A stretch of DNA of 64,000 nucleotides from a virus, in the IMG/VR virus record IMGVR_UViG_3300028859_000017, positions 16,323-80,322 of that record; one strand, given 5' to 3'. The first letter of the stretch is position 1. Every line of letters begins with the position of its first letter. A program made the translations under genes and the position numbers. The notes under the pieces were generated by a model that ran no database searches, was not told the DNA's origin, and was given only the letters and a program-made list of their open reading frames with translations. Positions 20,842-57,630 of this stretch are shown here, one piece after another.

Positions 20842-20868
20842 TTATCGGCAATGGTGATATAAAGTGTA
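20842..20868 (-). promoter_or_regulatory. sigma28/FliA-like promoter
   Basis: TACACTTT-N11-GCCGATAA upstream of the HNH gene. Confidence 0.8.
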
Positions 20869-20915
20869 GGGAAAATAAAAAATTATTTGCTATGTCACAT
20901 AAGGCCTAGCCACAC

Positions 20916-20942
20916 AAAAAGAAGGCCCAATAAAGGGCCCTC
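20916..20942 (-). terminator. intrinsic terminator after major capsid gene
   Basis: minus strand GAGGGCCC-TTTATT-GGGCCTTC-TTTTT. Confidence 0.85.
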
Positions 20943-20972
20943 ATTTTGCTTATAGTTACTATAGGATTAAGG

Positions 20973-22577
20973 TTAAACAACACCATAATCAGAGGCAGGA
21001 GTGGAACCAGATGTATAGAGGTTCTGAACCTGGAGAACACCTAAACCGTACGCGCCGTCGAGTAGAAGCTGATGGTCGTAACGTTGCTGTAAGCCGACAA
21101 CAGTTGAGAAAATATCACCTGAGAGGACATCAATTGAAGGTGGGGTAAGATATGTCACGAAGGGAAAGTACGCATATGGAGCCTTGCCTAAATCTTTAGA
21201 AGTGAAGCCCATGAGAATCTTGTCTGACTGGGGAAACTGAGGAGCCTTAGCAACAGTGAAGTTGTTGATGCTACCAAACTTCTCAGCATCAATACTGAAA
21301 TCACCCTGAGCCTTATGACCAGTATCAGTAGCCATCTTAAATTCGGCAGTATTCTGAAGCAGTGTAAATACATGGGGATGGGTAACAGCAAACATACCCT
21401 CACCACGAAGGAAGTCAATACTCATATCATTAGCAAGATAGTTCATCTTATGAACTAGTTCCTGGTTCTTCTGGAACATAGTGCCCCGGAAAGAGTTTGC
21501 AGGATAAGAAGCATCATAAGTAGAAATCTTACCAGCATTGGCCATCATGTCAAGCATCATTTCTAGGTCAATTTCAAGTGCCATTGACTCAGTCATGCCA
21601 CCAACTAGTTCCTTTAGAGCATCCATACGACCTTCAGTATAAGCTTCAAGGTCCTGAATAGCTTCTGCGGAAATCTGAGCAAAGTTCTTACGTGAACGAG
21701 TGCTAACCTGGATTAGACTCTGAACGAAACTAACTTCACCAAGAGCCTTATTACGTTCCTGATTATACTGATAGGTTACTGAGAAAGTAGCTGTTCCAGT
21801 AATAGTAAGACCAACAGCAGTAGCGGCAGCAGCAGCAGTCTGATTGAAGGTAATAGAAGGAACACCAGAACCATTAGTAGTTACAGTGCCATTAACATTG
21901 TCAGGGGAAACTGCAGCCATAACACCAGCACTATTATCAATAGCCACTACTACGGAATTACGAGGAATAGCACTATCATAAACTGCAATTGAAGCAGTGC
22001 CACTAATGTACGGAGTATAGGTGGGAGTATAACCAGATAAAGTAGAAGTTCCACCTACCTCAGTTACCTGCTGACCTGAGTAGTTGGCATCAATACCTGA
22101 AGTGGTATCTTCATACTGTGTTGCGCCTGAACCATAACGCTTGTAGGAAGCTGGGTTCATGTATTCCTGACCGGCAGTTGTAGCACCCTTAGTGGTATTA
22201 CGAGAAAGTCGGAAGGTCTGAATTACCTGAGTAGGAACATCAAGCTGGCGAGTAGCAATAAACTTAGTAACAACAATCTGTGGGAATACACGAGTTATAA
22301 TTGTTGGAAGCATTGCTTTGTTATAAGTTGCAACAGAGGCTGAGGTAGTTGCTTCAGTCAGTGGCTGATTCTTGGTGGCATACTGGAGTGATTTTACAGC
22401 ATGAAGAAAAACAGTATTACGATATTCAGCATCTGGAATAGCAGTCTGTAGATTTTCATTAAAAGTCTTCCAGAAAGAAGACTTGCCAGCCTTCTTAGCT
22501 GCTTGTTCATCACGCTCAAGAATTGCTCGTACTCGTTGCTCACTTAGCATTTCTAAATTAACAGGGTTTGTAAACAT
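20973..22577 (-). CDS. gp23: major capsid protein
   Basis: LTE|A cleavage-type site, PTIITRVFP, TRSRK, EAIQDL, EID, YFPFV, QRY; high-expression codon bias; AGGAG SD. Confidence 0.95.
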   Translation of the reverse strand: MFTNPVNLEMLSEQRVRAILERDEQAAKKAGKSSFWKTFNENLQTAIPDAEYRNTVFLHAVKSLQYATKNQPLTEATTSASVATYNKAMLPTIITRVFPQIVVTKFIATRQLDVPTQVIQTFRLSRNTTKGATTAGQEYMNPASYKRYGSGATQYEDTTSGIDANYSGQQVTEVGGTSTLSGYTPTYTPYISGTASIAVYDSAIPRNSVVVAIDNSAGVMAAVSPDNVNGTVTTNGSGVPSITFNQTAAAAATAVGLTITGTATFSVTYQYNQERNKALGEVSFVQSLIQVSTRSRKNFAQISAEAIQDLEAYTEGRMDALKELVGGMTESMALEIDLEMMLDMMANAGKISTYDASYPANSFRGTMFQKNQELVHKMNYLANDMSIDFLRGEGMFAVTHPHVFTLLQNTAEFKMATDTGHKAQGDFSIDAEKFGSINNFTVAKAPQFPQSDKILMGFTSKDLGKAPYAYFPFVTYLTPPSIDVLSGDIFSTVVGLQQRYDHQLLLDGAYGLGVLQVQNLYTSGSTPASDYGVV

Positions 22578-22597
22578 TCAATTATCTCCTGGATAAA

Positions 22598-22605
22598 ATT
22601 AATTA
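22598..22605 (-). promoter_or_regulatory. putative late promoter motif (T/G)AATTAANT
   Basis: TAATTAATT upstream of the capsid SD; same motif precedes more than 15 late-type genes. Confidence 0.6.
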
Positions 22606-22631
22606 TAGTTTTGTTACACTTTAAGTAGGTA

Positions 22632-23480
22632 TTAACCTAAATAAATCTCATAATCTAAAGCACTTGACTCTTTTGATTCAGTTACAACTTCTTTTTCTTG
22701 CTTTTTAGTTGCCAGATTTTCGGCAATTACTTTAAGTTTATTACGCTGTGGTGTGACTTCTACAGGCTTATCTACTACACTCTCAGTTACAACTACTTCT
22801 GGTTTCTGAGTAGCTTCTACTTCACGTTCCTTTAAAGCCTGTTTAGCAGCTTCAAGACATTTCTTTCCTTCTTCTAAATTCTTTGGTTCCATCTTAGTAA
22901 CTGTTTCATAAAGTAAAGCAATTTTTTCAGTTGGGTAGCCAGAGCATTCTGAGACAACTAGTGAATGTAAATCACCAATTAATGCTTTTGCTTCTAATAC
23001 CTTAATCTTTTTAAGGGACTCGTTAAGCTTATTCTTCATACTATCAAGGTCTGCTTGATTCTTTCCTTCTAGCTCATTTATGTTTATAAAGGGAGCCATT
23101 TCACTAACTGCCTTTGAGAAAGCTTCTTGAATTTTAGTAGATGTATTGGTAGCCTTAACATCTTCTTCTATAGCTTTAGTAATCTTTTTAACAGATTCAT
23201 TCATGAATTCGTAAACTTCTTTACCAAGCTTCTTCTTGGCTTCATTAAACTTAGCTTCATAAAAATCCTTTAGCTTAGTCTCATAAAGATTAGATTTAGC
23301 TAAGATAGTCTTCTTAAAAATAAAGGCTTCCTTTTCAAAGGACTTCTTCTGTTCTACTAATTTAGTTTTTTCAGTGTCTAATTCTGCCTTTGATTCTGCT
23401 ATAGCTGCCTGAATCTGCTCTTCAATAATCTGATGAACATCAGCATTTGCTAATAGTTCTTTAATCTGCTTCATATTCAT
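22632..23480 (-). CDS. gp22: prohead core scaffold protein
   Basis: Coiled-coil, Glu/Lys-rich, many xxE|S sites; between protease and capsid genes. Confidence 0.8.
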   Translation of the reverse strand: MNMKQIKELLANADVHQIIEEQIQAAIAESKAELDTEKTKLVEQKKSFEKEAFIFKKTILAKSNLYETKLKDFYEAKFNEAKKKLGKEVYEFMNESVKKITKAIEEDVKATNTSTKIQEAFSKAVSEMAPFININELEGKNQADLDSMKNKLNESLKKIKVLEAKALIGDLHSLVVSECSGYPTEKIALLYETVTKMEPKNLEEGKKCLEAAKQALKEREVEATQKPEVVVTESVVDKPVEVTPQRNKLKVIAENLATKKQEKEVVTESKESSALDYEIYLG

Positions 23481-23503
23481 ATTTATTCACCTATATAAAA
23501 TAA

Positions 23504-24130: not shown

Positions 24131-24176
24131 TTACTGTCTCTTTCCCACAACTCATATTTCGTGCCTATTATTTATA

Positions 24177-25442: not shown

Positions 25443-25492
25443 ATAAATATGCCTTTTTAAGTATCTGCTTACAAATTAATTATATAATTTTA

Positions 25493-27419: not shown

Positions 27420-28517
27420 TTAATTCCTTGATTTTACTTGCTCTAATAACTTTTCTGCCAATTCTTCATCATAGAGTTTTGATACTCCTTTATGAGTTTT
27501 ATATAAGTGACATGTTCTACACACTATTATTAGATTGTCCAAGTCCTTTATTTTTTCTGGAGCCACACTTTTGGGAATTATATGGTGACATTCTAACCTA
27601 TTAGCTGTTGTATCCTGACAACCACATAATTGACATTTATAATTATCTCTCTCAAGTACTTGTGGCTTTAAAACTCTTGACACATACCAGGCTATGCTTA
27701 TATTATTTTTATAATTAATATCTATCTTACATCTACTTGTAGTATATTCAGTGGCTTTTTGTATAATTTCCTTTTTATGCTCTTTATAATACTTAGAATA
27801 CCATACTTTATGTTGCTTTATTATGGCTTCTTTATGTTCTTCGTTATAAGTTTTTTGATACTCTTTTATTCTTTCTAAATTATTTAATTTATATATTTTA
27901 TTGGCTAAGCTTACTTTTTCTTTATTTATTTCTACATAAACTTTCTTTTTTAACTGTAATTCCTTTATATGAGTTTTATAATATACTCTAGTATACTCTT
28001 TTATTTGTTCTGAATGAGCTAACCTATATATTTTTTTCTTCTGTAAAATAATAGACCTATTATCATTACGATATTTCCTATTATAAACTTGTCTACATTC
28101 ATTACAATAGTGATATAATCCATTCTTTACTGCTTTATCTTCAGCAAAATAGGTTTTATTTTTTTCTACTCCACAGATAGAGCATTTTTGAACCTCAGTA
28201 ACTACAGCATCTACTCTTAGTTTGTTTTGTTTTTGATACAAAGATACCTTAGTTTTATTACATTCCTTACAAATTACACTATATCCATCTTTTTTATATT
28301 TATCCTTGGCAAATTCTTTTACATTTTTTTCTATATTACATTTAGTACATTGCTTAACTGTAATTTCCTTATTTACAATACTACAGCCATAAGTTTTAGA
28401 GTATTCTTTTACACACACCTTACACCAAATCTGTAAGCTATCTTTTGTTTTGGAATGCCTACCAAAAAAACTAGTATCCTTCTCAATACCACATTTTGAA
28501 CATGTTTTTACTGGCAT
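27420..28517 (-). CDS. HNH homing endonuclease with three CxxC...CxxC modules
   Basis: 3x K.C..C..EK...F......CxxC; ERDNYKCQLCG...LECHHI...NLIIVC..CH; start moved to ATG 28517 (GAGG SD; promoter overlaps the longer ORF start). Confidence 0.9.
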   Translation of the reverse strand: MPVKTCSKCGIEKDTSFFGRHSKTKDSLQIWCKVCVKEYSKTYGCSIVNKEITVKQCTKCNIEKNVKEFAKDKYKKDGYSVICKECNKTKVSLYQKQNKLRVDAVVTEVQKCSICGVEKNKTYFAEDKAVKNGLYHYCNECRQVYNRKYRNDNRSIILQKKKIYRLAHSEQIKEYTRVYYKTHIKELQLKKKVYVEINKEKVSLANKIYKLNNLERIKEYQKTYNEEHKEAIIKQHKVWYSKYYKEHKKEIIQKATEYTTSRCKIDINYKNNISIAWYVSRVLKPQVLERDNYKCQLCGCQDTTANRLECHHIIPKSVAPEKIKDLDNLIIVCRTCHLYKTHKGVSKLYDEELAEKLLEQVKSRN

Positions 28518-28537
28518 ATCACATACCTCTACATACA

Positions 28538-28564
28538 ATATCGGTAAATCCTATTCATACTGTA
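28538..28564 (-). promoter_or_regulatory. sigma28/FliA-like promoter
   Basis: TACAGTAT-N11-ACCGATAT. Confidence 0.75.
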
Positions 28565-28565
28565 G

Positions 28566-30546: not shown

Positions 30547-31440
30547 TTATCTACCTATTATATCACTTATATCACTTATATAACTCTCTAAATTTTTCTC
30601 TTCTGTATAGGGTATTATGATTAGTTTTATATTATTCTCTTTGGCATATATCACTTTATCCATATCACGTTGTTTAGCTTTTAAATGCTGTTCTTCTGTT
30701 TTTTGAAAAAAATTTGGAAATATATAGTGCTGATAACCATGATACTCAAATGCTATTTTATGTTCTTCATTATAACCATCCCATTGATATCTATGTTTAT
30801 TATATTTAAAATTAGTCTTTATAAATTTAATATTTAGTTTTTGTTCTAATAACTCTTTACATTTATACTCTGTCTTAAAAGAGGCACATTCAGGACACCA
30901 TTGCCTTTGATCCTTTATAGCATGCCATATAGCATGCCATATAGCATGCCATTGATGACCCTCTTTACATTCCCATAGCATTTTAGTATTATTGTTTATA
31001 TAAACAGAGTCTAAACATTTTCCATTTCTTGATTTAGCATAATTACAGCACTCAGAAATATCGGATTTAACATTCCCGCAGCAATATGGGCACCAAGTAT
31101 TATCTGAGTTAACTACATGCCAACAAGAAAACCATGAGTGACCACTACTACATTCCCACTCCATCTTAGCTTTATTATTGGTGTAGTTAGTTGACTTCAG
31201 TTTTCCTCCTCTAGCTATAGCATAGGCTTGTAAAATCTCTATTGAAGTCCTAACACAACTATTACAAGTAGGACACCAAGTATTATGAAAGCTTACCTCA
31301 CTCCAGTTAGCCTTCCACTGATGACCCTTCTCACATTCCCATAACATCTTTGTTCTATTATTTATATAAACAATATCCAAGCATTTACCATTCTTAGATT
31401 TAGCATGCTCTTGACATACCTCTATAGTTCCTCTTCTCAC
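30547..31440 (-). CDS. zinc-repeat (3 units) endonuclease, paralogue of 17336..18568
   Basis: 3x WEC..GH.W...WCP.C with near-identical C-terminal nuclease domain. Confidence 0.85.
   Translation of the reverse strand: MRRGTIEVCQEHAKSKNGKCLDIVYINNRTKMLWECEKGHQWKANWSEVSFHNTWCPTCNSCVRTSIEILQAYAIARGGKLKSTNYTNNKAKMEWECSSGHSWFSCWHVVNSDNTWCPYCCGNVKSDISECCNYAKSRNGKCLDSVYINNNTKMLWECKEGHQWHAIWHAIWHAIKDQRQWCPECASFKTEYKCKELLEQKLNIKFIKTNFKYNKHRYQWDGYNEEHKIAFEYHGYQHYIFPNFFQKTEEQHLKAKQRDMDKVIYAKENNIKLIIIPYTEEKNLESYISDISDIIGR
30916..30951. repeat. 3 x 12-bp perfect tandem repeat (TATAGCATGCCA)
   Basis: Encodes WHAI-WHAI-WHAI within the third zinc unit. Confidence 0.95.
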
Positions 31441-33292: not shown

Positions 33293-34273
33293 TCATTCCT
33301 TATCTTCTATACTATCTGAAACATTTTGCTTTTGAGAGAATATTATTAGAGGTCCAAATGTCTCTTTTAATAACTCAAGAGCATCCTGAACCTCTTTTAT
33401 CTTAACACCACATTCATTTTTTAAAGTAAATACTAAATTATTTGCTAATCGTGGCCCTGCTTCTGGTATATGAATAAGTTCCAATAATTTTGTTATTATT
33501 TTTTTATTTAAAGGAGTTATTAAATCATCTTCTATGTTTGATAAATACTCTAAAACTAATAAAAATTCCTGGAAAATTATAGGGGCATCAGTAGAAAGAT
33601 AGGCTTCATTACCAAATAATCGTGAAATATTATCATAACTAACATTAGTGATTCGTTCAGCACCATAGTTCATAGTAATTGTAGTTATACCATAGTTTAA
33701 AATCATTACAAAATATGTGAATACTCTGGCATAAATTGGATTACCCCTATCATCAGTTCCTACAACTCTATTAGGGTCAAACTTATCCATGGCCTGAATA
33801 ATTTTTAATATGGCACTTTGAAAAATTTCCTCATATGCTAACCCATGCTTATGACGGGCATATTTGAAGATTACCCCATCGATAAGCTGATAACAATAAG
33901 TTAAAAAATCATTCCTATCATTATAGTCTTTACTATCATGCCATTTAGTCCATAAATATTTTCCTACATCCTCTATAAAATAGTTATTAGACTTCTTTCC
34001 TCTTTTCTTTTTATCGGCAAGTTCTGGATATCTTTCAGGATATAAGCTATATGCCTTTAATAGAAAAGAAGAACTATACTTATTATTAGGAAATTTATCA
34101 AGCATTTCACCAATAATTCGTTTTTCCATAAAGTCCACATCAATTTTAGAATATAGAATTACTCTATATCCGTGCTTAACATCTTTTCCAATATCATCTC
34201 GGTCTATGCCAAGATTATCATATATATTTTCATAAGTTGGTAAATTTACTTCAAAATTATTATCTATTTCCAA
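33293..34273 (-). CDS. phage sigma factor, gp55-like late sigma with N-terminal extension
   Basis: KKSNNYF...EEIFQSAILKIIQAMDKFDP...VFTYF, matching the sigma region 2 pattern. Confidence 0.75.
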   Translation of the reverse strand: MEIDNNFEVNLPTYENIYDNLGIDRDDIGKDVKHGYRVILYSKIDVDFMEKRIIGEMLDKFPNNKYSSSFLLKAYSLYPERYPELADKKKRGKKSNNYFIEDVGKYLWTKWHDSKDYNDRNDFLTYCYQLIDGVIFKYARHKHGLAYEEIFQSAILKIIQAMDKFDPNRVVGTDDRGNPIYARVFTYFVMILNYGITTITMNYGAERITNVSYDNISRLFGNEAYLSTDAPIIFQEFLLVLEYLSNIEDDLITPLNKKIITKLLELIHIPEAGPRLANNLVFTLKNECGVKIKEVQDALELLKETFGPLIIFSQKQNVSDSIEDKE

Positions 34274-34308
34274 AGCATACCTTCTTTAATTACTTAATTA
34301 TAACTACA

Positions 34309-34335
34309 ATATCGGATAAACTAAATTAATTCTTA
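34309..34335 (-). promoter_or_regulatory. sigma28/FliA-like promoter of the sigma gene
   Basis: TAAG-N15-TCCGATAT, followed by two AATTAA late-type motifs (34285-34300). Confidence 0.7.
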
Positions 34336-34339
34336 ATAT

Positions 34340-34398: not shown

Positions 34399-35460
34399 TT
34401 ATATAGTTATATTCTCTATTTGCTTATTAATATATTCCTCTAAATTATTATTTTCAGTATATGGAATAATTATTAATTTTATATTATTTTCATTAGCATA
34501 TATCACTTTATCCATATCTCTTTGAACTGCTTTTTCATGTATCTCTAAAGTTCTATGCCAATGATTAGGATAAATATAATGCTGAATTCCTTGATACTCA
34601 AAGGCTGCTTTATGTTCCTCATTATAGCCATCAAATTCATATCTATTACCCTTGTAAATAAAACGTGTCTTCTTAAATTTATAACCTAATTTTTGCTCTA
34701 AAAGTTCTTTACATTTATATTCTGTTTTAAAAGAAGAACATTCAGGGCACCAACTATGGTTATTTTTAATATTATCCCAAATAGCTTCCCACTGATGACC
34801 TTTTTCACACCCCCATACCATTTTTGTATTACTATTTATATATTTAGTGGATATTAATTTACCTTGTTTGCTAGAGGCAAATTGCTGTAACTCAATAATG
34901 CTACATTTTCGTAATTCAGCACAGCACTCTGGACACCAACTTTTGGAATTTTTAATGTGATCCCAACGAGCTTCCCATTGATGACCCTCTGAACACTCCC
35001 ATAATAATTTAGTATTATTATTTATATATTTAATAGATAATAGTCTTCCATTTTTATTTTCAGCATGTTTTTGTAACTCCTTTATATCACAAAGGGTGCT
35101 AGAACATGCTGGACACCACTGACCAGCATTTTTAATATTATTCCAACAAGCTTCCCATTGATGCCCCTCTGAACACTCCCATAATAATTTAGTATTATTA
35201 TTTATATATTTAGTGGATATTAATTTACCTTGTTTGCTAGAGGCATATTCCTGTAATTCAATTATATTAGGTTTAGCTTTTCCAGCACAATAAGGACACC
35301 AACTACCACTATTAATACTATTCCAATGAGCTTCCCATTGATGCCCATCTTTACATTGCCACAATAATTTATGCTTACTATCAACATATTCTGTAGATAA
35401 TAATAAGCCACCTTTAGCAGCAGCAAAGGCCTGTAAGGTAGCTACATCATATTTTTTCAT
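34399..35460 (-). CDS. zinc-repeat (4 units) endonuclease, paralogue of 17336..18568
   Basis: 4x W.C..GHQW...WCP.C plus EFDGY...AFEYQGIQH domain. Confidence 0.85.
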   Translation of the reverse strand: MKKYDVATLQAFAAAKGGLLLSTEYVDSKHKLLWQCKDGHQWEAHWNSINSGSWCPYCAGKAKPNIIELQEYASSKQGKLISTKYINNNTKLLWECSEGHQWEACWNNIKNAGQWCPACSSTLCDIKELQKHAENKNGRLLSIKYINNNTKLLWECSEGHQWEARWDHIKNSKSWCPECCAELRKCSIIELQQFASSKQGKLISTKYINSNTKMVWGCEKGHQWEAIWDNIKNNHSWCPECSSFKTEYKCKELLEQKLGYKFKKTRFIYKGNRYEFDGYNEEHKAAFEYQGIQHYIYPNHWHRTLEIHEKAVQRDMDKVIYANENNIKLIIIPYTENNNLEEYINKQIENITI

Positions 35461-36624
35461 TTAATCATCTATTCCAGATAAGTCAGCTATATCTCTAATA
35501 TCAGAAGCATCAGGAAGAATAGCCTCTTCAGAACCAGCTGAAAAATTAAGTTTCTCACTATAGCAATTACGCATCATTTTTAGAAAATGCTGCTTATTTT
35601 CCTCAGACTCGTTAAATAATTTAGTGAATGTATCAATAGAATTAAACTTTTTCTCGGAACCATCTGGCATGATAATAGTCTTCCAAGCAGCTTTACCCAT
35701 ATAATCAGCATCATTTAATAAATCATAGACAATATGTGGATTGTAATAACCACGGTCATCATAATACAAACGTAGCGGAATGGTCCTCCCTAAAGCAGCC
35801 GAGGACTTACATTTTATTATTTTTGTTCTCACGAAATGACCAGAAGGAAGCTTGGGGTCAGAGCCTATAAATTTACCTCTATCCATAAATAATCTAGAAA
35901 TACAGGCATAACGAACAGCATCTCCTCCAACAGTAGTATATACAGGTCCTTGCCAAGAACTAGTCATGCCACCAATTTGCTGTCTTACTTGATTTATAAT
36001 TAATACAGCTAGGTTAGTCTCACGGCACAGCATTTTAGTTCGTTTTAGACCTTTTGAAATCATTTTAGCAGTCATGGCCACAGTGCTTGTCTCATAATCA
36101 CTTTCTAATTCGGCCCTGGTGCTTAATCCTGCCAGGGAATCTAAAACTACTAAACTAGGAACAGATATATTTTTACGCTGAATATAATTAGCGATTTTTT
36201 CAATTTGAGCAAAAGCACGTTCTGCCAAATCCTCTACTGTAATAATACACTTTTTAGTGTCAACACCGAAATTTTCCATTCTAAACCGATCGCCTGACCC
36301 GCCCTCAGTGTCAATAAGGCAAGCAAGGCCACCAAGCTTCTGAACTTGAGCCAACATATGAATACCGAAGGAGCTCTTCCCCGACCCCTCTTTTCCCGAA
36401 ATTTCTGCCATAGCTCCCTGTATAAGGCCTCCTCCAAGTAAGAAATCTAACGAATCTATTCCAGTTGGTATAAAAGACCTTACAAAGTCTTCATCATCTA
36501 GTGCTGTATTGCCACCAAATTCCTTTCTCAATTGGCTCTTAAATTCGTCAAGGTCATTAAAATTATCGGTAGCATTAATGATACTTATATCTCTATCTAA
36601 TTTATTTGATTTTTTGGCTGGCAT
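35461..36624 (-). CDS. uvsX: RecA-like recombinase UvsX
   Basis: IPTG..SLD..LGGG, GKEGSGKS, IDTEG, VLDSLA, INQVR; start moved to ATG 36624 (GGAG SD, promoter upstream). Confidence 0.95.
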   Translation of the reverse strand: MPAKKSNKLDRDISIINATDNFNDLDEFKSQLRKEFGGNTALDDEDFVRSFIPTGIDSLDFLLGGGLIQGAMAEISGKEGSGKSSFGIHMLAQVQKLGGLACLIDTEGGSGDRFRMENFGVDTKKCIITVEDLAERAFAQIEKIANYIQRKNISVPSLVVLDSLAGLSTRAELESDYETSTVAMTAKMISKGLKRTKMLCRETNLAVLIINQVRQQIGGMTSSWQGPVYTTVGGDAVRYACISRLFMDRGKFIGSDPKLPSGHFVRTKIIKCKSSAALGRTIPLRLYYDDRGYYNPHIVYDLLNDADYMGKAAWKTIIMPDGSEKKFNSIDTFTKLFNESEENKQHFLKMMRNCYSEKLNFSAGSEEAILPDASDIRDIADLSGIDD

Positions 36625-36644
36625 TATGTCATCTCCATAGTATA

Positions 36645-36671
36645 TTATCGACAAATACAAGAAAAGCCTGA
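36645..36671 (-). promoter_or_regulatory. sigma28/FliA-like promoter of uvsX
   Basis: TCAG-N15-GTCGATAA. Confidence 0.7.
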
Positions 36672-36690
36672 GAGATATCCCAGGCACCTT

Positions 36691-37774: not shown

Positions 37775-37902
37775 TTTATTTCCTTTTGCGAACTTAATCG
37801 CTGAAAAGATACCCACTTAGGCATCAAAATTATTAATCATATAATTAATTCAGTAGTTTCTTGGTAGCTGTTTCTCTGTCTGCTACCCTTGCTACATAAC
37901 TA

Positions 37903-37929
37903 ATATCGGTAAGCACTCAGAAAACATGA
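37903..37929 (-). promoter_or_regulatory. sigma28/FliA-like promoter of gp32
   Basis: TCATGTTT-N11-ACCGATAT. Confidence 0.75.
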
Positions 37930-37947
37930 GAAAAAATTTTTGAAAAT

Positions 37948-38484: not shown

Positions 38485-38538
38485 TAAACCTCCTAAAATT
38501 AATTATTTAGGATACCAAATATTTATTTTCAAAAACCC

Positions 38539-38565
38539 TAAAGTTTCTCCAATATTATACGATAA
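38539..38565 (+). promoter_or_regulatory. sigma28/FliA-like promoter with a perfect extended -35
   Basis: TAAAGTTT-N11-TACGATAA. Confidence 0.8.
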
Positions 38566-38670
38566 TAAAGCAGCAACTTGTCGCTTAAATATTAACCTTC
38601 AAGCAAAGCAAAGAAAGCCTAAACAAACAAGTAAAACCTAAAAGATAGAAGTTCAAAACAAAAATAAATC

Positions 38671-38722
38671 GTTCGAAGCGAAGCTGAGAACTGGGTTGAG
38701 AGAACGAAGTTCGAGCAACCCA
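38671..38722 (+). other. twin GAA-triloop hairpins in a purine-rich non-coding strand-switch region (candidate origin or structured RNA)
   Basis: GTTC-gaa-GC(GAA)GC-tga-GAAC abutting TGGGTTG-aga-GAAC(GAA)GTTC-gag-CAACCCA. Confidence 0.6.
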
Positions 38723-38785
38723 TAAGGAACTGGAACTAGAACTAAGAAGATAAATAAGTAGTATGAAAGCTGACAATGAATAACT

Positions 38786-39928
38786 ATGGCTTCTATTAAA
38801 TTTAGACAAAAATTATCTGGAAGACTTAGAACTGGAAAAAGGTCTAAAAAACTTAATACCAGAACTAAGATATCTGAGAATAATAACAATCCTCTTCTAA
38901 TTGTTGATATAACTTATCTTGAGGAATTATTGTTATTCAGACAGCAGTGTAAAACTTCTGCTCTCTATAATAAATCCATAGAAGAATTAGTTAAAAGAGT
39001 ATATACATGGCTATATTCTGCTTTTACTATAATAAACCCTTCTGGAATTCTGTTTATTTCAGAACAAAATACAACTTTAACACAGGCTTTAAATCAGTCT
39101 GTAATATATGGAAATGTTAAAAATATCATATTCTCTTTACTTAATCAACAGATAAATAATAAATCTATCTGTATTCTTTCTAATAATTTAGATTTATGGT
39201 CTCTAGTCTCCTTTTCTGCTAAAATATCTTTTCTGGCTATAAATTCAGATAATAGACTTTATTACTATAATAATAAAACTGGTTTAGATATTCTTTCTAA
39301 ACTTATAGGAACTTATAAAATAGTAAATAAACTTGGATTAGATAGTTTAAAGTATATGAGTCTTCAATATCTTTATATGTTGCTTTTTTATATTCAATTT
39401 ACTAACAAGAAGAAAAATGAAGATTTTTATTTTGATAAAGATTATTTTAAAAACAACTATAAAAAATTTTCTAAATCAAATGGATTAGGTCTGGAACTCA
39501 TAGCTAAAGCCCATAAGTTTTTAAGTTATGCTTTTTTAACTAAACCAGAATTTTTAGATTATTTCTTTCTGGGCAACTCTTCCCACTTCTCCTTAAATCT
39601 TCAGCGTTTAATGAAGCTTTTATATTTTGATAGAGTTTTATTAGAGGGTATGAAAGCATCCTATGATAAAGTTCAAAAACCTTCTGTAATACCTAATATA
39701 GACTTCTCTAATACCCAGCCAGAGCTCCCAAGTCAGTTTAAATGTTATACTATGCTGTGGAATAATGATACCTCCTGTGATAGCCTACAAGAGCAGAAAA
39801 TATTTGATAGAATAAGTAATAGGTATAATAAAAAACTTGAGGAACCTATTGAACAAGCTGAAATTACCGATAATAATAGTATTAATACTGTTGAGAATTA
39901 TGTAAAAAACCTTTTATCGGAGATATAG
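38786..39928 (+). CDS. degenerate PIN/5'-3' exonuclease-like protein
   Basis: LLIVDITYL and CILSNNLDLWSLV parallel LLIDGHNL and IILSNDSDFLQLV of the next gene; most catalytic acids absent. Confidence 0.5.
   Translation: MASIKFRQKLSGRLRTGKRSKKLNTRTKISENNNNPLLIVDITYLEELLLFRQQCKTSALYNKSIEELVKRVYTWLYSAFTIINPSGILFISEQNTTLTQALNQSVIYGNVKNIIFSLLNQQINNKSICILSNNLDLWSLVSFSAKISFLAINSDNRLYYYNNKTGLDILSKLIGTYKIVNKLGLDSLKYMSLQYLYMLLFYIQFTNKKKNEDFYFDKDYFKNNYKKFSKSNGLGLELIAKAHKFLSYAFLTKPEFLDYFFLGNSSHFSLNLQRLMKLLYFDRVLLEGMKASYDKVQKPSVIPNIDFSNTQPELPSQFKCYTMLWNNDTSCDSLQEQKIFDRISNRYNKKLEEPIEQAEITDNNSINTVENYVKNLLSEI
39847..39873 (+). promoter_or_regulatory. sigma28-like promoter (weak -35) upstream of rnh
   Basis: TATT-N15-ACCGATAA within the 3' end of the previous gene. 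Confidence 0.5.
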
Positions 39929-40983
39929 TGGTAAGTCCTAAATTCATGGATTCACAAAATGTTCTCTTAATTGATGGACACAATCTCTTAATAAGGGTAA
40001 TGTTTTCTAAGAATAAGGGTTCAGTAGTGATATCCGAACCTGAGTTAATACAGGAATGTGCTGAAATTTTTATTAATCAAATCAGTCTTTGTATCAGGAA
40101 ATATTCTTGTAAGCGACTTTATGTAGCATTTGATAATGGTGGCTCTATAAGAAAGAAAGCTATCTTTGAAGCATATAAAGCAAATAGACCTGCCTCAGGA
40201 ACTAACTATGGACAAGTTTCCGCTTTTAATGATACTAGTAGTGATTTATTTAGTAAGTTAAAAGAAAAAGTATTAGAGCTTTGTAATATACTTAATCTAA
40301 CTGTTTTCTGTGAGTATGGAATAGAAGCAGATGATTACATAGGAATTGCTACTAAAGAGCTTACTAATATAGGTAAGCAAGTTATTATTCTGAGTAATGA
40401 TAGCGACTTTCTTCAGCTTGTTAGAACCCCTTCTGTAATTTGTTCTATTCCCTATAATAAATCAGAGGTATCTTTAGATAATTTTACTCGTTACTTTTCT
40501 GAATTGCCAAAAACAAAAGGAGTAACTATTAGTAGTTATGAATATTTGTTTTATAAGGTTATAGTTGGAGATACTTCAGATAATATTAATGGAATTAAAG
40601 GAATTGGTTATAAGACTTTATTTAAATTAATGAAAGAACAATTACCATTAGAAAATAAATCTACTTTAGATATTTATGTTAAAAATAATTTAGATTATAT
40701 TAAACTTCTTTCTTCACGGAATTCAACTAAATTAGAGAAACTTATTCACGAGAATATAGAATTACTTGAACGTAATTATAAGTTAATAGATTTAACTTCT
40801 TCTGTAATTTCTTCAAATACAGTATCCTTAACCTTAAAAAAGTTATTAGAGGTCGGTGAGCTTCCTGGAAAAAAAGAAACCATTCATAAATTTCATGAGT
40901 TATTTCCATTAGCTACTAATTATATAGACTTTGTTATCAGCACTTTATTTGCCTTTAAACCGGTCTATAAAGAACCTGAGTAA
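39928..40983 (+). CDS. rnh: RNase H / 5'-3' flap exonuclease
   Basis: LIDGHN, AFD, YKANR, EADD, SNDSD, GDTSDNI.GIKGIG.KT. Confidence 0.93.
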   Translation: MVSPKFMDSQNVLLIDGHNLLIRVMFSKNKGSVVISEPELIQECAEIFINQISLCIRKYSCKRLYVAFDNGGSIRKKAIFEAYKANRPASGTNYGQVSAFNDTSSDLFSKLKEKVLELCNILNLTVFCEYGIEADDYIGIATKELTNIGKQVIILSNDSDFLQLVRTPSVICSIPYNKSEVSLDNFTRYFSELPKTKGVTISSYEYLFYKVIVGDTSDNINGIKGIGYKTLFKLMKEQLPLENKSTLDIYVKNNLDYIKLLSSRNSTKLEKLIHENIELLERNYKLIDLTSSVISSNTVSLTLKKLLEVGELPGKKETIHKFHELFPLATNYIDFVISTLFAFKPVYKEPE

Positions 40984-40994
40984 TTTGTCGATAC
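40968..40994 (+). promoter_or_regulatory. sigma28/FliA-like promoter of primase
   Basis: TAAA-N15-GTCGATAC, then GGGAGG SD. Confidence 0.8.
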
Positions 40995-41012
40995 TTACTG
41001 TGGGAGGTTGCA

Positions 41013-43464: not shown

Positions 43465-43950
43465 ATGCTAAAAACGCAAGAGAAACTTTTACAAGATGCT
43501 AAAATACAAATAGCACAATATTTGTATAGGTCATTACAAGAACCTACTAATGTCTTAACTATGCTGCTACAGGATATTTCTGGTAATGGAAATCTAAATT
43601 GGCAGATGGATTCAAATAAAAATAAATTATCTAAAGTATTTTATGAGATAGCTAAAAAAATAAATGCCTACACTTTAGATAATGGTGATTTTAGAACTTA
43701 TGTTTTATTACAATTAGTTGAAATTGTATATAATGAATATAAAGAAGAATTATTTACCCAGTTTTTACAGCAAGGGTATAATGCCCTACCTGAAAGTATA
43801 GTAGCTTCTTTGTCTGATGACTATTCTAAACAGCCTCCACAAAATACAAATTTTCCAGGAACTGAAAATACGTCAGATAAATTTATACCTATTTCAGTAA
43901 AAGACAGATTAATACCTGAAGCCTTATACTCAGTAAAAGACATTGATTAA
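43465..43950 (+). CDS. hypothetical protein
   Basis: 161-aa ORF, AGGA SD. Confidence 0.65.
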   Translation: MLKTQEKLLQDAKIQIAQYLYRSLQEPTNVLTMLLQDISGNGNLNWQMDSNKNKLSKVFYEIAKKINAYTLDNGDFRTYVLLQLVEIVYNEYKEELFTQFLQQGYNALPESIVASLSDDYSKQPPQNTNFPGTENTSDKFIPISVKDRLIPEALYSVKDID

Positions 43951-44314
43951 AAAACTAAAGTTGACTGATTTTTTATCCCATACCTCTATTATCGACAGTC
44001 CTTTAACTTTTCAACCAAAGGAATTCGACAATATGAGTTATCCTATGTCGGATTTTTATAAGGCCATATCAGAACATACTGGATTATTTATAGTTAATGG
44101 TATAAGTTATACCTCTCTTATACCATCTATAAATAATCTATATTTTTTTATTAAGGAGTCAGTCAATGTTGAATACTTGTTATCTTTCAATGCTATTATT
44201 GACATTAAACAGAAAAAGCTTAATGAATTTATAGTGTTTTATTATCCAGATAGTAAGGTAACTATATTATTACAGGATTTTAATAATGTCAAAGAAAACA
44301 AAACAACAACTTAA
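43943..44314 (+). CDS. hypothetical protein
   Basis: 123-aa ORF tiling the operon; start uncertain. Confidence 0.55.
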   Translation: MIKKLKLTDFLSHTSIIDSPLTFQPKEFDNMSYPMSDFYKAISEHTGLFIVNGISYTSLIPSINNLYFFIKESVNVEYLLSFNAIIDIKQKKLNEFIVFYYPDSKVTILLQDFNNVKENKTTT

Positions 44315-44699
44315 GGCCAATCTATATGAGAATGATTATGATTATTTTGAAGAAGAGTTAGAAGCTCCAGTAACTAAATTTAAACATATAACTAATACAG
44401 TAGTTAAAAAAATAAAACCAATAGTTATACAGACAACAGGAGTTACTGAAGCTGAAAAAAAGTTAGAATTACAAAATAAAGTCTTTGGTGGAAAAATATC
44501 AGATAAAACTGTCTCTTGTAATTGTAATAAATGTGGTCATCATATTAATGGAGTATTAGTAAGTACTATTTATTCTCCCATTTCTGATTTGGTAACTCCC
44601 TTTATTTCTTATGAGTGTTCTTATTGTAAACACATAGGCTATAGAAGTGTTAAAGAAAAATCATTAATAGCAAAAGAATTTGATGCAATTTATTTCTAA
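44286..44699 (+). CDS. zinc-ribbon hypothetical protein
   Basis: CNKCGH...CSYCKH; AGGA SD. Confidence 0.65.
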   Translation: MSKKTKQQLKANLYENDYDYFEEELEAPVTKFKHITNTVVKKIKPIVIQTTGVTEAEKKLELQNKVFGGKISDKTVSCNCNKCGHHINGVLVSTIYSPISDLVTPFISYECSYCKHIGYRSVKEKSLIAKEFDAIYF

Positions 44700-44710
44700 T
44701 TTACCGATAT
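44684..44710 (+). promoter_or_regulatory. sigma28-like promoter
   Basis: TGCAATTT-N11-ACCGATAT. Confidence 0.6.
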
Positions 44711-44731
44711 TTTAATAAAGGACTTTAACTT

Positions 44732-45073
44732 ATGGATTTAATAAAGAAAGCATATGTTTGTGTTAATTGTAAACACAAGGGAGTAATTCTTAATGCTATT
44801 AAAAAGAACGAAGTAATTAGTACTGATTTTTTAAGTGATTATGTTAGACCTTTGGGAATAATTACTGATTCAAAAATTTATAAATACAATATCATTAGAG
44901 ATGACTGTGACATTGTTGTAAGTAAGAAACCTTTTGAGTGTGTGTGTGAGAAGTGTGGAAAATCCTCAATAGAATATATACCAACTCAGAAGTTTGATAA
45001 TGTTCTTAACTTCTATAGTGCTGCTGAACCTGAGAAATGGCTTAGGGGCTTTAATGGCTTGGGAAAACGGTAG
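44732..45073 (+). CDS. zinc-ribbon hypothetical protein
   Basis: CVNC...CEKCG; AAGGA SD. Confidence 0.65.
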   Translation: MDLIKKAYVCVNCKHKGVILNAIKKNEVISTDFLSDYVRPLGIITDSKIYKYNIIRDDCDIVVSKKPFECVCEKCGKSSIEYIPTQKFDNVLNFYSAAEPEKWLRGFNGLGKR

Positions 45074-45114
45074 AATAGTAATTAAATGTAGTAAGTTTTT
45101 ACATCTGAAGGATT

Positions 45115-52294: not shown

Positions 52295-52557
52295 TGGAAA
52301 ACCAACCAGCTACATTCTCACAGCAAGAAATGACACTAGCAGAAATGATGTTTATCTTAAGTGCTAGTTTTTATGTTGAGGCTTCTAATATAGGACAAAA
52401 GGCCCTGGAAGAAAAAAATCAAAATTTCGTAGTAGTTAGAAATGAAAATGACCCAACAGTAAAGGATGAGGAAGCTAAAGCAGAGTCTGAAATGGCCTCG
52501 ATGGAGTCGGAGGAGGCCTCATTAGAGCCACCTCCCGAAGATTCTTCTATCAGTTAA
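52294..52557 (+). CDS. small acidic hypothetical protein
   Basis: 87 aa, TAATG coupling, AAGG SD. Confidence 0.6.
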   Translation: MENQPATFSQQEMTLAEMMFILSASFYVEASNIGQKALEEKNQNFVVVRNENDPTVKDEEAKAESEMASMESEEASLEPPPEDSSIS

Positions 52558-52575
52558 TCCTGAATTTGTCGATAC
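52549..52575 (+). promoter_or_regulatory. sigma28-like promoter
   Basis: ATCAGTTA-N11-GTCGATAC upstream of the Cas4-like nuclease. Confidence 0.6.
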
Positions 52576-52597
52576 TAGTATTACCTCGGAGGCTTCG

Positions 52598-53992
52598 TTG
52601 TTGGACGAAACTACTATAAATTATATACAGCCCAGTTTAAAATTTTCTATAAAGAAATATTTTCCTCTAAAAGAGAAAACTTTACTGTATGATGCTCTGC
52701 TATTCTGTAGCCTAGTGTCCAAGACACCATCCTTTGCCTCATCTTCTGATTTGGATGCTTTTTCTATTCTGATAAACAACTGTAAGCAGTGTAATATCTC
52801 ATTAGGTAAATATTTAAGTTGTGCTTACTCCTATATTCAAAAATATACCTCACCTGGACACAAACTTAGTTTAGGATATTTTCTAAACGATTCAGTAGTT
52901 GAGTATTGTAGTAAATTTATAGATAATTTTACTACTTCTTCTTTATTATTAGAACAAGTTAAGGATGACATTCTTCTAACTGAAAAAAATATAAGAGAAA
53001 TTGCTGTCACGGATTCTGTTTCTTATGAGGATGCCTTTAATAAATATAAAAAGGAAGGAAAATTAACTTCTTATTTTTTAGCCTATAAAAGATATTGTCA
53101 CTCTCCTCTTGTAGCATCCTCGGGTTCTTTATATTTAGATAAACTTTCAGTTATTTTGGAGCCTTTCTTCACTTATATTTTAGCTAAAAATAGCACATAT
53201 GTTTCAGATAAAATAGAGGAATGGAATAATTCTAAGTTAGAAGATTTTAGTTTCTGTCCTAAATATTTTACAGATAGATATATTACAAATGAATTGGTAG
53301 AGGAATGTTTAGGTAATGAGGCTACAAAACAAGGTTCTAAATTACATCTTATTTTTGAGACTATTTTTACCAGATACAATAAAAGTAAAACTAAAAATCT
53401 TAAAAATATAGCCTCTAACTATTTTTCTTCTAATAAATATTTAGACATCAAGAATGAGTTAGCAGAACATACTCCATTTATAGAAAGTTTATTCTTGGAT
53501 GATACTTCTATTTTTTATCAGTTAATAAATCCTTCATCTATTGTATTAGTAGAACATTTAATGAAGGGTAATTTGTCGAATTATGACTTTTATGGAACTG
53601 CTGATTTAATTATAATTAATGAAAATATAGCTCATATTTTAGATTATAAATCATCTAAATTAGATGAGAAATATTTAGAAAAAAACAATACTAAATATAA
53701 TAAACAAATTAGCTTATATGCTAAGCTTCTAAAAAATGAATATCCTAAGTTAGAAACAATTGATGGCACCTTAATTTATACTAGAGGTCTATTACATCCA
53801 TTTAAGGAATTGGCTTTTAATATTGATATAGATAGGGCAAAAGACATAACAAAGATTAAACAAACTTTAAAGTCTGGTATACTTCTTCCTAATACTAGAA
53901 GTTGTTTTTTATGTAGGCATCCTAATTGTATTTTTAGAACTAGGGAAAGTATTTGGGACATTAATGGGAATAAAAAGAAAAAGATTAATTAA
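52598..53992 (+). CDS. Cas4/RecB-like PD-(D/E)XK exonuclease with N-terminal extension
   Basis: FCPK, G..LH, GTADL, ILDYKS, Q..LYA and C-terminal CFLC....C (four-Cys Fe-S pattern). Confidence 0.85.
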   Translation: MLDETTINYIQPSLKFSIKKYFPLKEKTLLYDALLFCSLVSKTPSFASSSDLDAFSILINNCKQCNISLGKYLSCAYSYIQKYTSPGHKLSLGYFLNDSVVEYCSKFIDNFTTSSLLLEQVKDDILLTEKNIREIAVTDSVSYEDAFNKYKKEGKLTSYFLAYKRYCHSPLVASSGSLYLDKLSVILEPFFTYILAKNSTYVSDKIEEWNNSKLEDFSFCPKYFTDRYITNELVEECLGNEATKQGSKLHLIFETIFTRYNKSKTKNLKNIASNYFSSNKYLDIKNELAEHTPFIESLFLDDTSIFYQLINPSSIVLVEHLMKGNLSNYDFYGTADLIIINENIAHILDYKSSKLDEKYLEKNNTKYNKQISLYAKLLKNEYPKLETIDGTLIYTRGLLHPFKELAFNIDIDRAKDITKIKQTLKSGILLPNTRSCFLCRHPNCIFRTRESIWDINGNKKKKIN

Positions 53993-54009
53993 CTTTGATG
54001 AGGTATAGT

Positions 54010-55177: not shown

Positions 55178-55178
55178 A

Positions 55179-55709: not shown

Positions 55710-55710
55710 C

Positions 55711-56328: not shown

Positions 56329-56356
56329 GTAAAAACAGCAATCTAAGAGGTAATCC

Positions 56357-56767
56357 ATGAGTATAACTTTTAAAATAACTACTGGAACTATAACTAATGA
56401 TGAGGATTCCACTGTCTTAACTAGTAGTGCTTATGCTGGTAATGATAGTAGAATACCTCAAAATCCAAATAGAATACATGGTAAAAATAATCCAAATATG
56501 TGCTCGGTTCATTTTATAGGCCCATTACCACCTGGAAAATATAATATAGGCTCCTTTGAAAACCATCCAGTAGTAGGCGAAAATAGTGCTCAATTAACTC
56601 AAATTTCTGGAAATACCTTTGGAAGGTCTGCTTTTTTTATTCATGGACAAGAAGCTCCAAATGGTTCTAATTATTTACAGGAATCAGAAGGCTGTATAGT
56701 TGTTCCACATAATGATAGACTAAAAATAGCAGCCCTTGCTCCAAAAATTTTAACTGTAATAGTATAA
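56357..56767 (+). CDS. Tlde1/DUF2778 L,D-transpeptidase-fold peptidoglycan enzyme (endolysin candidate)
   Basis: YAG...NP...GPLPPGKY...GRSAFFIHG...SEGCIV; GAGG SD. Confidence 0.85.
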   Translation: MSITFKITTGTITNDEDSTVLTSSAYAGNDSRIPQNPNRIHGKNNPNMCSVHFIGPLPPGKYNIGSFENHPVVGENSAQLTQISGNTFGRSAFFIHGQEAPNGSNYLQESEGCIVVPHNDRLKIAALAPKILTVIV

Positions 56768-56791
56768 TTATTATTTTATATTTGTCGATAA
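56765..56791 (+). promoter_or_regulatory. sigma28/FliA-like promoter
   Basis: TAAT-N15-GTCGATAA. Confidence 0.7.
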
Positions 56792-56808
56792 TAGATTTTG
56801 GAGACTGT

Positions 56809-56985
56809 ATGAATGATGAACAAAGTATTACGTTTACACAACAAGAATTACGTGTTTTGTTAGATATATTAAATAAGTATAGTATTTCAATAAGTGTTAG
56901 TGATTTATCAAAGATACAAAAGCAAGAAATACAGTCTCCATTATTAACTATTTTTGACAAGTTAACTGAATCACAAGGGAGCTAA
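56809..56985 (+). CDS. small hypothetical protein, 58 aa
   Basis: ATG 56809 with GGAG SD downstream of the promoter. Confidence 0.6.
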   Translation: MNDEQSITFTQQELRVLLDILNKYSISISVSDLSKIQKQEIQSPLLTIFDKLTESQGS

Positions 56986-57085
56986 TATATGGTTTGTTTG
57001 TCCGAAAAGGCAAGAGCAAATTATGAGAGTAGTATTGAAGTAAGTAATTAAATTATATCAATAAGTTAATGAAAGGATATTATAA

Positions 57086-57235
57086 ATGAAGAATGGTAGC
57101 GAAAAGCATGGTGTTGGAGGCGAGCAGAAAGGTCCTGTAAAGGTTCCTGGTAAGACTCAGAAGAATGGTATTTTACGTGATACTCGTAAGGGTACTGTAA
57201 AGCCTAGTGGTGGTATTAAGGAAGATAAGCGTTAA
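57086..57235 (+). CDS. 49-aa Lys/Gly-rich protein (not in ORF track)
   Basis: AAGGA SD; MKNGSEKHGVGGEQKGPVKVPGKTQKNGILRDTRKGTVKPSGGIKEDKR; AAG/GGT/CGT codon use like gp23. Confidence 0.75.
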   Translation: MKNGSEKHGVGGEQKGPVKVPGKTQKNGILRDTRKGTVKPSGGIKEDKR

Positions 57236-57265
57236 TTAGTAATGTAATTTAAAGGAGATAATAAG

Positions 57266-57379
57266 ATGGTAGATAAAAAGAAAGACTCAGGTAAGAAACT
57301 TCCACCCTGGCTTAAGAAGGATGGTAAGGACGATAAGAAGATGGATAAGAAAGACAAGAAGGGTAAGGATTGTAAGTAG
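57266..57379 (+). CDS. 37-aa Lys/Asp-rich protein (not in ORF track)
   Basis: AAGGAG SD; MVDKKKDSGKKLPPWLKKDGKDDKKMDKKDKKGKDCK. Confidence 0.75.
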   Translation: MVDKKKDSGKKLPPWLKKDGKDDKKMDKKDKKGKDCK

Positions 57380-57400
57380 TCTTTATTTGTGGGTGCTGTA

Positions 57401-57544
57401 GTGCCATTTAAATCAGATAAGCAGCGAAAGTTCTTTAACATTAATAAAGGTAAGTTAGAGAACTCAGGTGTTAACGTTGAAGAATGGAATAAGTCTAGTA
57501 AGGGCAAGAAATTACCAAAAGTAGCACCCAACAAAAAGAAATAA
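57401..57544 (+). CDS. 47-aa basic protein with MPFKS start (not in ORF track)
   Basis: GTG start; MPFKSDKQRKFFNINKGKLENSGVNVEEWNKSSKGKKLPKVAPNKKK. Confidence 0.75.
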   Translation: MPFKSDKQRKFFNINKGKLENSGVNVEEWNKSSKGKKLPKVAPNKKK

Positions 57545-57573
57545 TAAATAGTTATCGATTTTGATTATATCTT

Positions 57574-57602
57574 AGAGACCCGTTAATTTGGGTCTCTTTT
57601 TT
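57574..57602 (+). terminator. intrinsic terminator
   Basis: AGAGACCC-GTTAATTT-GGGTCTCT-TTTTT. Confidence 0.88.
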
Positions 57603-57603
57603 G

Positions 57604-57630
57604 TAATTTTTTGTATGATTTGACCGATAC
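57604..57630 (+). promoter_or_regulatory. sigma28/FliA-like promoter of nrdJ
   Basis: TAATTTTT-N11-ACCGATAC directly after the terminator. Confidence 0.7.

Follow-up and report, generated by a model that had tools for sequence, protein, structure and literature searches.

In the textbook sigma cascades of phages, those of SPO1 and T4, both the sigma factors and the promoters are phage inventions. Bacillus phage SPO1 is transcribed with the host sigma-A, then with gp28 (middle genes) and then with gp33/gp34 (late genes). Phage T4 uses sigma-70 together with MotA and AsiA for its middle genes, and gp55, gp33 and gp45 at the box TATAAATA for its late genes. Here, we analyzed a stretch of 64,000 nucleotides (the window), bases 16323-80322 of the 80,322-bp IMG/VR virus contig IMGVR_UViG_3300028859_000017 (G000), in which CGATA boxes stand upstream of replication, recombination and endonuclease genes and of the gene for a divergent sigma factor. 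The boxes have the upstream partner, spacing and register of flagellar sigma-28 promoters, and related phages encode a FliA-type sigma factor of 218-221 amino acids (aa) that would be their reader.

The same two boxes in the same register are found in class 3 flagellar promoters, read by FliA in E. coli, Salmonella and P. aeruginosa, by SigD in B. subtilis and by WhiG in Streptomyces. Phage-encoded sigmas are known to redirect the host core polymerase in cascades of the SPO1 type (PMC13401047). A survey of phage sigmas was centred on sporulation-like sigmas (PMC9429907); the SigF/SigG-like sigmas of Bacillus phages act on host programmes, and at least one of them is dispensable for lytic growth (PMC9429907). 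A comparative study of jumbo phages described, for the T4-like ones, minimal and RpoD-like sigmas only (PMC7824862). In the literature, which was covered incompletely so that absence is not proof, no report was found of a phage that encodes a FliA-type sigma and carries a regulon to match.

Two-box signal in the sigma-28 register

Related contigs in IMG/VR were G001 and G002 (capsid 87% identical) as well as G003, G004 and G005. CheckV estimated a completeness of 46% for G000 and of 93% for G005 (230,154 bp), and G000 was collinear with G005:106-165 kb. On these grounds, the window is judged to be a fragment of a T4-related phage genome of roughly 230 kb. The original prediction had listed 12 CGATA boxes on the coding strand, each with a tetramer 15 nucleotides (nt) upstream, in DNA poor in CG. 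All 12 boxes and every tetramer were recovered when the sequence was re-read, and CG was scarce, with 511 CpG in 64 kb (observed/expected 0.30).

The boxes were also commoner upstream of genes, as had been expected. Among the 61 CGATA on both strands of the 80.3-kb contig, 11 lay within 60 nt upstream of a same-strand start, and these zones make up 2.9% of positions (binomial p = 1e-6). In a blind 6-mer test of upstream zones, GTCGAT, TGTCGA, CGATAA and CCGATA ranked just after AATTAA in G000, and CCGATA and CGATAC were near the top in the relatives G005 and G001. A position matrix built from the relatives only, with G000 left out of training and a threshold of >=12 bits, gave 15 matches in G000 and 0.97 +/- 0.96 in 200 Markov-1 random genomes (maximum 5). 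The -35 half of the matrix scored +3.15 bits at the 12 noted sites versus -2.85 at the other 49 CGATA (Mann-Whitney p = 1.1e-5). With the pooled matrix, 15, 17, 11 and 30 matches were found in G000, G001, G004 and G005, versus 0.5, 0.8, 0.8 and 2.1 expected, respectively, and about 85% of these matches were co-oriented with the local genes. Chance or base composition as the origin of the boxes was ruled out by the upstream enrichment, the relatives-only matrix and the excess with the pooled matrix.

The anatomy of the signal was counted over 59 non-redundant upstream sites from five related phage contigs, with the C of CGATA as position 0. The pooled signal was cTaAAG-N14-G(C/A)CGATA(C/A)T. 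A T was present at -21 in 43/59 pooled sites and in 11/12 sites of G000, an A at -19 in 32/59 and a G at -17 in 21/59; the commonest bases from -22 to -14 were CTAAAGTTT. Nearer the core, G occurred at -2 in 38/59 sites, C or A at -1 in 45/59, C or A at +5, and T at +6 in 44/59. The 14 bases between the boxes were low in information, and the information peak at -21 was sharp (0.56 bits versus at most 0.21 in the adjoining columns).

The fliC promoter of P. aeruginosa sigma-28 has (-36)TCTAAAG(-30) and (-15)GCCGATAA(-8) (PMC12784957). When the phage C was set at -13, the phage T, A and G fell at -34, -32 and -30, which is the register of P. aeruginosa fliC base for base. The -10 element of the class (GCCGATAA, with its CGA core and extended -10 G/C) was represented by CGATA in 12/12 sites, and the -35 element (TAAA(G) or TCTAAAG) was found in the pooled sites. 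The spacing was that of the class, with 11 bp between TAAAGTTT and GCCGATAA, the -35 T at -34 and the -10 box at -15 to -8. The FliA/SigD assignment of the original prediction thus agreed in -10 box, -35 box and spacing, and the CGATA boxes are very likely the -10 elements of sigma-28-class promoters. Compared with flagellar sigma-28 promoters, the phage promoters prefer C/A and then T at -8/-7, the -35 box is looser in G000, and the CG core is kept although the DNA is strongly CpG-depleted.

The sites are given below with their scores under the pooled matrix and, where stated, under the matrix without G000. The predicted +1 lies eight bases after CGATA, as taken from the sigma-28 register; SD denotes the Shine-Dalgarno sequence and ORF an open reading frame.

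20841..20869, minus strand: sigma-28-type promoter before HNH gene 19752-20822; -35 CTACAC, -10 GCCGATAAT; predicted +1 20834, 1 nt before the SD GGAGG; 23.4 bits pooled, 18.3 bits without G000.
28537..28565, minus strand: sigma-28-type promoter before HNH gene 27420-28517; -35 CTACAG, -10 ACCGATATT; predicted +1 28530; 15.5 bits.
34308..34336, minus strand: sigma-28-type promoter before the 326-aa sigma gene, with a terminator hairpin immediately upstream; -35 TTAAGA, -10 TCCGATATT; predicted +1 34301.
36644..36672, minus strand: sigma-28-type promoter before uvsX/recA 35461-36624; -35 CTCAGG, -10 GTCGATAAT; predicted +1 36637, 1 nt before GGAG; best-scoring site, 27.0 bits pooled, 23.7 without G000.
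37902..37930, minus strand: sigma-28-type promoter before gp32 36908-37816, followed by a second box, AATTAA; predicted +1 37895.
38538..38566, plus strand: sigma-28-type promoter at the strand switch; -35 CTAAAGTTT, -10 TACGATAAT; predicted +1 38573, with a leader of about 210 nt to the first plus-strand gene at 38786; 19.3 bits pooled, 18.2 without G000.
39846..39874, plus strand: sigma-28-type promoter within the final stretch of the preceding ORF, ahead of the 5'-3' exonuclease/RNase H gene 39928-40983; predicted +1 39881; 16.7 bits.
40967..40995, plus strand: sigma-28-type promoter before primase 41013-41915; -35 ATAAAG, -10 GTCGATACT; predicted +1 41002, coinciding with the SD GGGAGG; 20.7 bits.
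44683..44711, plus strand: sigma-28-type promoter before ORF 44732-45073 (function unassigned); predicted +1 44718; 13.4 bits.
52548..52576, plus strand: sigma-28-type promoter before the Cas4-like PD-(D/E)XK nuclease gene 52598-53992; predicted +1 52583; 24.2 bits pooled, 20.9 without G000.
56764..56792, plus strand: sigma-28-type promoter before the small ORF 56809-56985; predicted +1 56799, 1 nt before GGAG; 20.7 bits pooled, 17.4 without G000.
57603..57631, plus strand: sigma-28-type promoter between a terminator and nrdJ 57658-60294, with an AATTAA box downstream of it; predicted +1 57638.
4707..4735, minus strand: weaker candidate within gene 4650-5939, 86 nt ahead of gene 3819-4631; 15.2 bits pooled, 15.4 without G000.

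The predicted +1 at 20834, 28530, 36637, 41002, 44718, 52583 and 56799 lies 0-5 nt before a GGAG-type ribosome-binding site. These seven sites would form a fixed cassette of promoter, SD and ATG, and the predicted messages would be nearly leaderless. For the remaining sites (57625, 37908, 39868 and 38560), the predicted leaders measure from about 20 to about 210 nt.

The box might be something other than a promoter, namely a signal that is bound by a protein or acts at the RNA level, for example an operator for translation or for a repressor, or a processing site. The seven boxes that immediately precede the SD, at a near-fixed distance of 18-23 nt to the start codon, would suit such a signal. 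This explanation is nevertheless very improbable: there are two boxes joined by a spacer of fixed length and unconserved sequence, the upstream one is often located within the gene before it or immediately behind a terminator, and elsewhere (38560, 37908, 57625) box and start codon are about 30 to 220 nt apart. The agreement with sigma-28 promoters also includes the register and the flanking positions (G and C/A-T).

The boxes stayed in front of orthologous genes although the flanks have diverged; proteins of the related contigs were only 50-75% identical, and intergenic flanks could not be aligned by eye. The uvsX box was kept in G005, the boxes of primase, ORF 44732 and the Cas4-like nuclease were kept in G001 and G005, and G005 had a box at the same relative place as the exonuclease/RNase H site. 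The box of the 326-aa sigma gene was kept in G004 and G005, each time just after a terminator hairpin. At gp32, both CGATA and AATTAA were kept in G001, G004 and G005, and at nrdJ the order of terminator, CGATAC box and AATTAA box was the same in G000, G001 and G005. The strand-switch site had a near-identical counterpart in G004, CCCTAAAGTTT...TACGATACT.

Two intergenic regions deserve separate mention. Upstream of nrdJ (57560-57700) and of gp32 (37817-37947), the tandem of CGATA and AATTAA is conserved in three to four related contigs, and both genes seem to be served by both promoter classes. In the strand-switch gap (38566-38785), a long leader follows the best -35 box, and the corresponding stretch of G005 is rich in G+C and apparently structured.

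The original prediction had seen no such site before structural genes. This was nearly right; sites within the structural block do exist, and they precede inserted HNH genes (20847, 28543 and genome position 9749, outside the window). One further site of G000 outside the window lies ahead of a 50-aa remnant, and a few weaker sites fall within genes (4713, 34016). A site of 17.9-18.5 bits at genome position 1963 (window coordinate -14359) is on the plus strand, within and antisense to a gene of the minus strand (genome 484-2721); it may have arisen by chance or may represent an antisense promoter.

The gene order around the sites is that of two opposed blocks in DNA of about 32% G+C. A long minus-strand block carries head and tail genes, including a gp23-type capsid gene at 20973-22577, followed by the sigma-like gene, uvsX/recA and gp32. 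A plus-strand block starts at about 38.8 kb; its genes encode an RNase H-type 5'-3' exonuclease and a primase, together with a Cas4-like nuclease of the PD-(D/E)XK kind and a ribonucleotide reductase of class II. Paralogous Zn-ribbon/HNH endonuclease genes with DUF4379/CapR repeats were found at 17336-20822, 27420-28538, 30547-31440, 34399-35460 and 60206-61330. They sit between conserved genes, and the same places in G005 lack them; one of them is 82% identical over 121 aa to a copy beside the FliA-like region of L038/L039. These paralogues are probably homing endonucleases, at least three of them with a sigma-28-type promoter.

A megablast search of GenBank phages with 12 kb of the window gave no match, and tblastn with the capsid gave a single match (27%), to an uncultured 595-kb phage. 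DNA of G000 was present in many peat metagenomes, and parts of it were present in peat and permafrost metatranscriptomes.

FliA-type sigma factor of the related phages

Pfam profiles of sigma regions 2 and 4 were searched over G000, G001, G004 and G005. In the near-complete G005, only two sigma-like genes were found, the orthologue of the 326-aa protein and a canonical sigma at 68421-69077. The latter is of the FliA type, 218-221 aa long, and is encoded in G005 and in the nearest-relative lineage G001/G002/L040 (about 233 kb). Protein P0126 was identical to the 326-aa sigma of G001, protein P0017 (FliA-type) was 99% identical to the L040 sigma, and L040 came from the same sample as G002. From the equal size reported for their contigs, P0126 and P0017 would lie on one contig of 233,172 bp. 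The neighbourhood of the FliA-type gene was syntenic in four further contigs of 30-32% GC.

The top NCBIfam family of the G005 sigma was FliA_WhiG (TIGR02479; 144 bits, E = 6e-42), followed by the FliA and WhiG equivalogs. The same protein scored 139 bits with PRK06986 FliA, 74 bits with SigB/F/G and about 50 bits with RpoH. For all 21 members of the phage sigma clade, FliA_WhiG came first with the best E-value of any family. The top matches in a PDB sequence search were all FliA (P. aeruginosa and E. coli), and the nearest cellular homologues were all FliA, at 33-37% identity.

The residues with which P. aeruginosa sigma-28 contacts its promoter are R80 (-12G), D87 and R97 (extended -10 GC), and S224 and Q228 (-35) (PMC12784957). 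A HMMER alignment to chain 9wsm_F was combined with these roles and with the clade alignment. The five residues R80, D87, R97, S224 and Q228 correspond to R74, D81, R91, S201 and Q205 of the phage sigma, respectively. In the clade alignment, R74 was nearly invariant and D81, R91, S201 and Q205 were invariant; the aromatic Y76 of P. aeruginosa sigma-28 aligned to a conserved Y/F. Judged by similarity and contact residues, the phage sigma is FliA-like; by the curated threshold it is not a member of the family.

The FliA-type gene belongs to a tightly packed array of small genes on one strand, about 38 kb past the left end of the stretch that is collinear with G000, and its absence from the window is uninformative because the locus lies that far beyond. 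It has no CGATA box of its own. A scan for the sigma-70 consensus around the FliA-like gene stayed below the shuffled expectation, an uninformative outcome. Within about 10 kb of the FliA-like genes of 43 other viral contigs, no enrichment of sigma-28-type sites was found; this result carries little weight, as G005 itself had few sites there. A metagenome scan with the sigma alignment was dominated by bacterial FliA and returned one contig of the phage clade only; the rest of the phage was not recovered.

In three related lineages (L037:3802, L039:2014 and L040:4617), a sigma-28-type site of 11-18 bits was seen in the same-strand array, at a distance of 5-8 kb upstream from the FliA-like sigma. 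These sites lie at or just past the end of the same orthologous gene, at positions that are not identical, and may form a positive feedback loop.

As to the reader of the boxes, the original prediction had named two options, FliA of the host and a FliA-like sigma that the phage itself encodes in another part of its genome. A sigma of the FliA_WhiG type was found in G005 and in the nearest relative, in line with the second option, and host FliA is the less likely branch. According to that branch, the host flagellar sigma-28 reads the boxes, the middle genes and the late sigma are tied to the motile state, and the phage FliA-type sigma, if there is one, serves another purpose, for instance to manipulate flagellar genes of the host. 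Both boxes and their spacing match cellular sigma-28 promoters, so host FliA could bind them; the contig of the window lacks a FliA-type gene, and searches with the FlgM families in G000 and G005 found no FlgM-like anti-sigma. We still consider this reading unlikely. The relatives, including the nearest one, encode a FliA-type sigma with its contact residues intact, which makes dependence on the host unnecessary, and a lytic phage of about 230 kb whose replication waited for a late flagellar checkpoint could not succeed in cells that are not motile.

The 326-aa sigma and the AATTAA box

The second sigma-like gene lies in the window, and its predicted promoter is the site at 34308..34336 listed above:

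33293..34273, minus strand: gene of a divergent sigma-70-family protein of 326 aa; weak Sigma70_r2 match; orthologues in G001, G002, G004 and G005.

That the gene which the original prediction called the late sigma stands behind such a promoter was seen in three genomes. The AlphaFold model of the 326-aa protein had a mean predicted local distance difference test (pLDDT) of 75.5, and its 50 best PDB matches with Foldseek were all sigma factors, though weak (E >= 0.01). Its profile gave only E = 0.044 to a sigma factor among PDB sequences, and it carried no FliA signature.

AATTAA was the top upstream 6-mer in G000, G005 and G004 and the second in G001. Over 114 pooled sites, the consensus of this box was tAATTAAnT, mostly 14-22 nt before the start codon, and no upstream (-35) position was informative. 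The box was kept before the capsid gene in five contigs, and the capsid gene has AATTAA only; examples are found at 22578-22631 (upstream of the capsid gene), 45074-45114 and 12729-12808. The lack of upstream information fits a different, one-box reader that needs no -35 element. The tAATTAAnT box before structural genes is probably a late promoter, and the 326-aa protein is probably the late sigma.

The 326-aa sigma could also read the CGATA promoters, its own included, in positive autoregulation, with AATTAA read by something else. Its gene stands directly behind a CGATA promoter in three genomes, and its predicted fold resembles that of full-length sigma factors. The lack of a FliA signature and the weak match in region 2 only make this improbable, as does the presence in the same phage lineage of a protein with the exact sigma-28 contact residues. 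With only two sigma-like genes in the 93%-complete G005, AATTAA, the largest class before structural genes, would moreover be left without a reader. Since the 326-aa gene lies behind CGATA and the FliA-type gene has no CGATA of its own, wiring from the FliA-type sigma to the 326-aa sigma is simplest.

Proposed cascade and its place among phage sigma systems

We propose, with a probability of roughly 0.7 for the model as a whole, that a phage-encoded FliA-type sigma reads the CGATA promoters. Its gene would lie about 38 kb outside the contig on the left side, in the same-strand array described above. Host core RNA polymerase with this sigma would recognize the two-box promoters, with transcription beginning about 8 nt past CGATA and, at most sites, 0-5 nt ahead of the ribosome-binding site. 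It would serve the genes for recombination, replication and nucleotide supply (uvsX, gp32, the RNase H-type exonuclease, primase, the Cas4-like nuclease and nrdJ), the inserted HNH endonucleases and the second, very divergent 326-aa sigma. The latter would then read the one-box tAATTAAnT before structural genes, so that a sigma-to-sigma cascade would result, and the timing of the CGATA class would be pre-late.

Several observations weigh against this model. The phage sigmas score about 145 bits, below the curated NCBIfam cut-off of 189.6 for FliA_WhiG, and no region 3 is on record for the phage FliA-type sigmas. The G000 contig (46% complete) is without a FliA-type gene, and its presence in this very phage is taken from the relatives. 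The -35 box is degenerate at several G000 sites (TTAAGA, ATAATT, GTAATT). The multi-domain sigma-like fold predicted for the 326-aa protein would leave room for a domain that reads a -35 box, and host FliA may be a co-reader. The RNA evidence is thin as well. Four metatranscriptomes hold contigs of this phage, with uneven cover; in two studies, the ends of RNA contigs (37877 and 37881) fall 14-18 nt into the gp32 transcript as predicted (+1 37895), and the start of one RNA contig (39897) falls 16 nt into the transcript expected from the 39868 site. Such ends are a weak hint, as assembled contigs define neither starts nor strands, and stretches that no RNA contig covers do not count as evidence.

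The RNA contigs showed one further common end. At 44060-44066, those from four metatranscriptomes of four studies all stop, one with a sequencing adapter directly attached. The stop lies inside ORF 43943-44314, and no terminator-like hairpin was visible in the sequence there.

The proposed cascade resembles that of SPO1 in its successive promoter classes, the earlier of which would transcribe the next sigma gene. The sigmas and promoters of SPO1 are phage-specific and unlike host alternative sigmas, whereas the first sigma here belongs to the FliA/WhiG family by similarity. The likeness to T4 lies in the homologues of gp23, gp32, UvsX, RNase H and primase, in the placing of replication genes in what would be a pre-late class, and in a probable late promoter with a single -10-like box and no -35. 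In contrast to T4, a dedicated sigma-28-type promoter would serve the middle class here and the late box would be tAATTAAnT. The candidate late sigma, with 326 aa and a predicted multi-domain sigma-like fold, also differs from the minimal gp55. Profiles of AsiA (PF09010) and MotA (PF09114) gave no match in G000 and the 93%-complete G005.

Like the sporulation-like phage sigmas, the FliA-type sigma can be recognised as homologous to an alternative sigma (group 3) of hosts; unlike them, it comes with dozens of matching promoters before core genes of the phage genome itself. Compared with flagellar sigma-28, the phage sigma is short (218-221 aa), lies under the curated cut-off and has no FlgM partner that could be found, and its promoters would serve replication, recombination and endonuclease genes and a second sigma rather than flagellar genes.

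It appears that the phage adopted an alternative sigma from a host, along with the promoter grammar of that sigma, for core replication genes. There is about an even chance that a lineage of T4-related peat phages of about 230 kb captured a cellular FliA-type sigma and rebuilt its whole pre-late programme around it, including the promoter of a second sigma for late genes. This raises the question of how such a phage sigma relates to the FliA-FlgM checkpoint of the host; the phage FliA-type sigmas may have diverged to escape the host anti-sigma FlgM. If the proposal is true, the sigma specificity of an uncultured phage would be predictable from sequence and could be tested with purified proteins.

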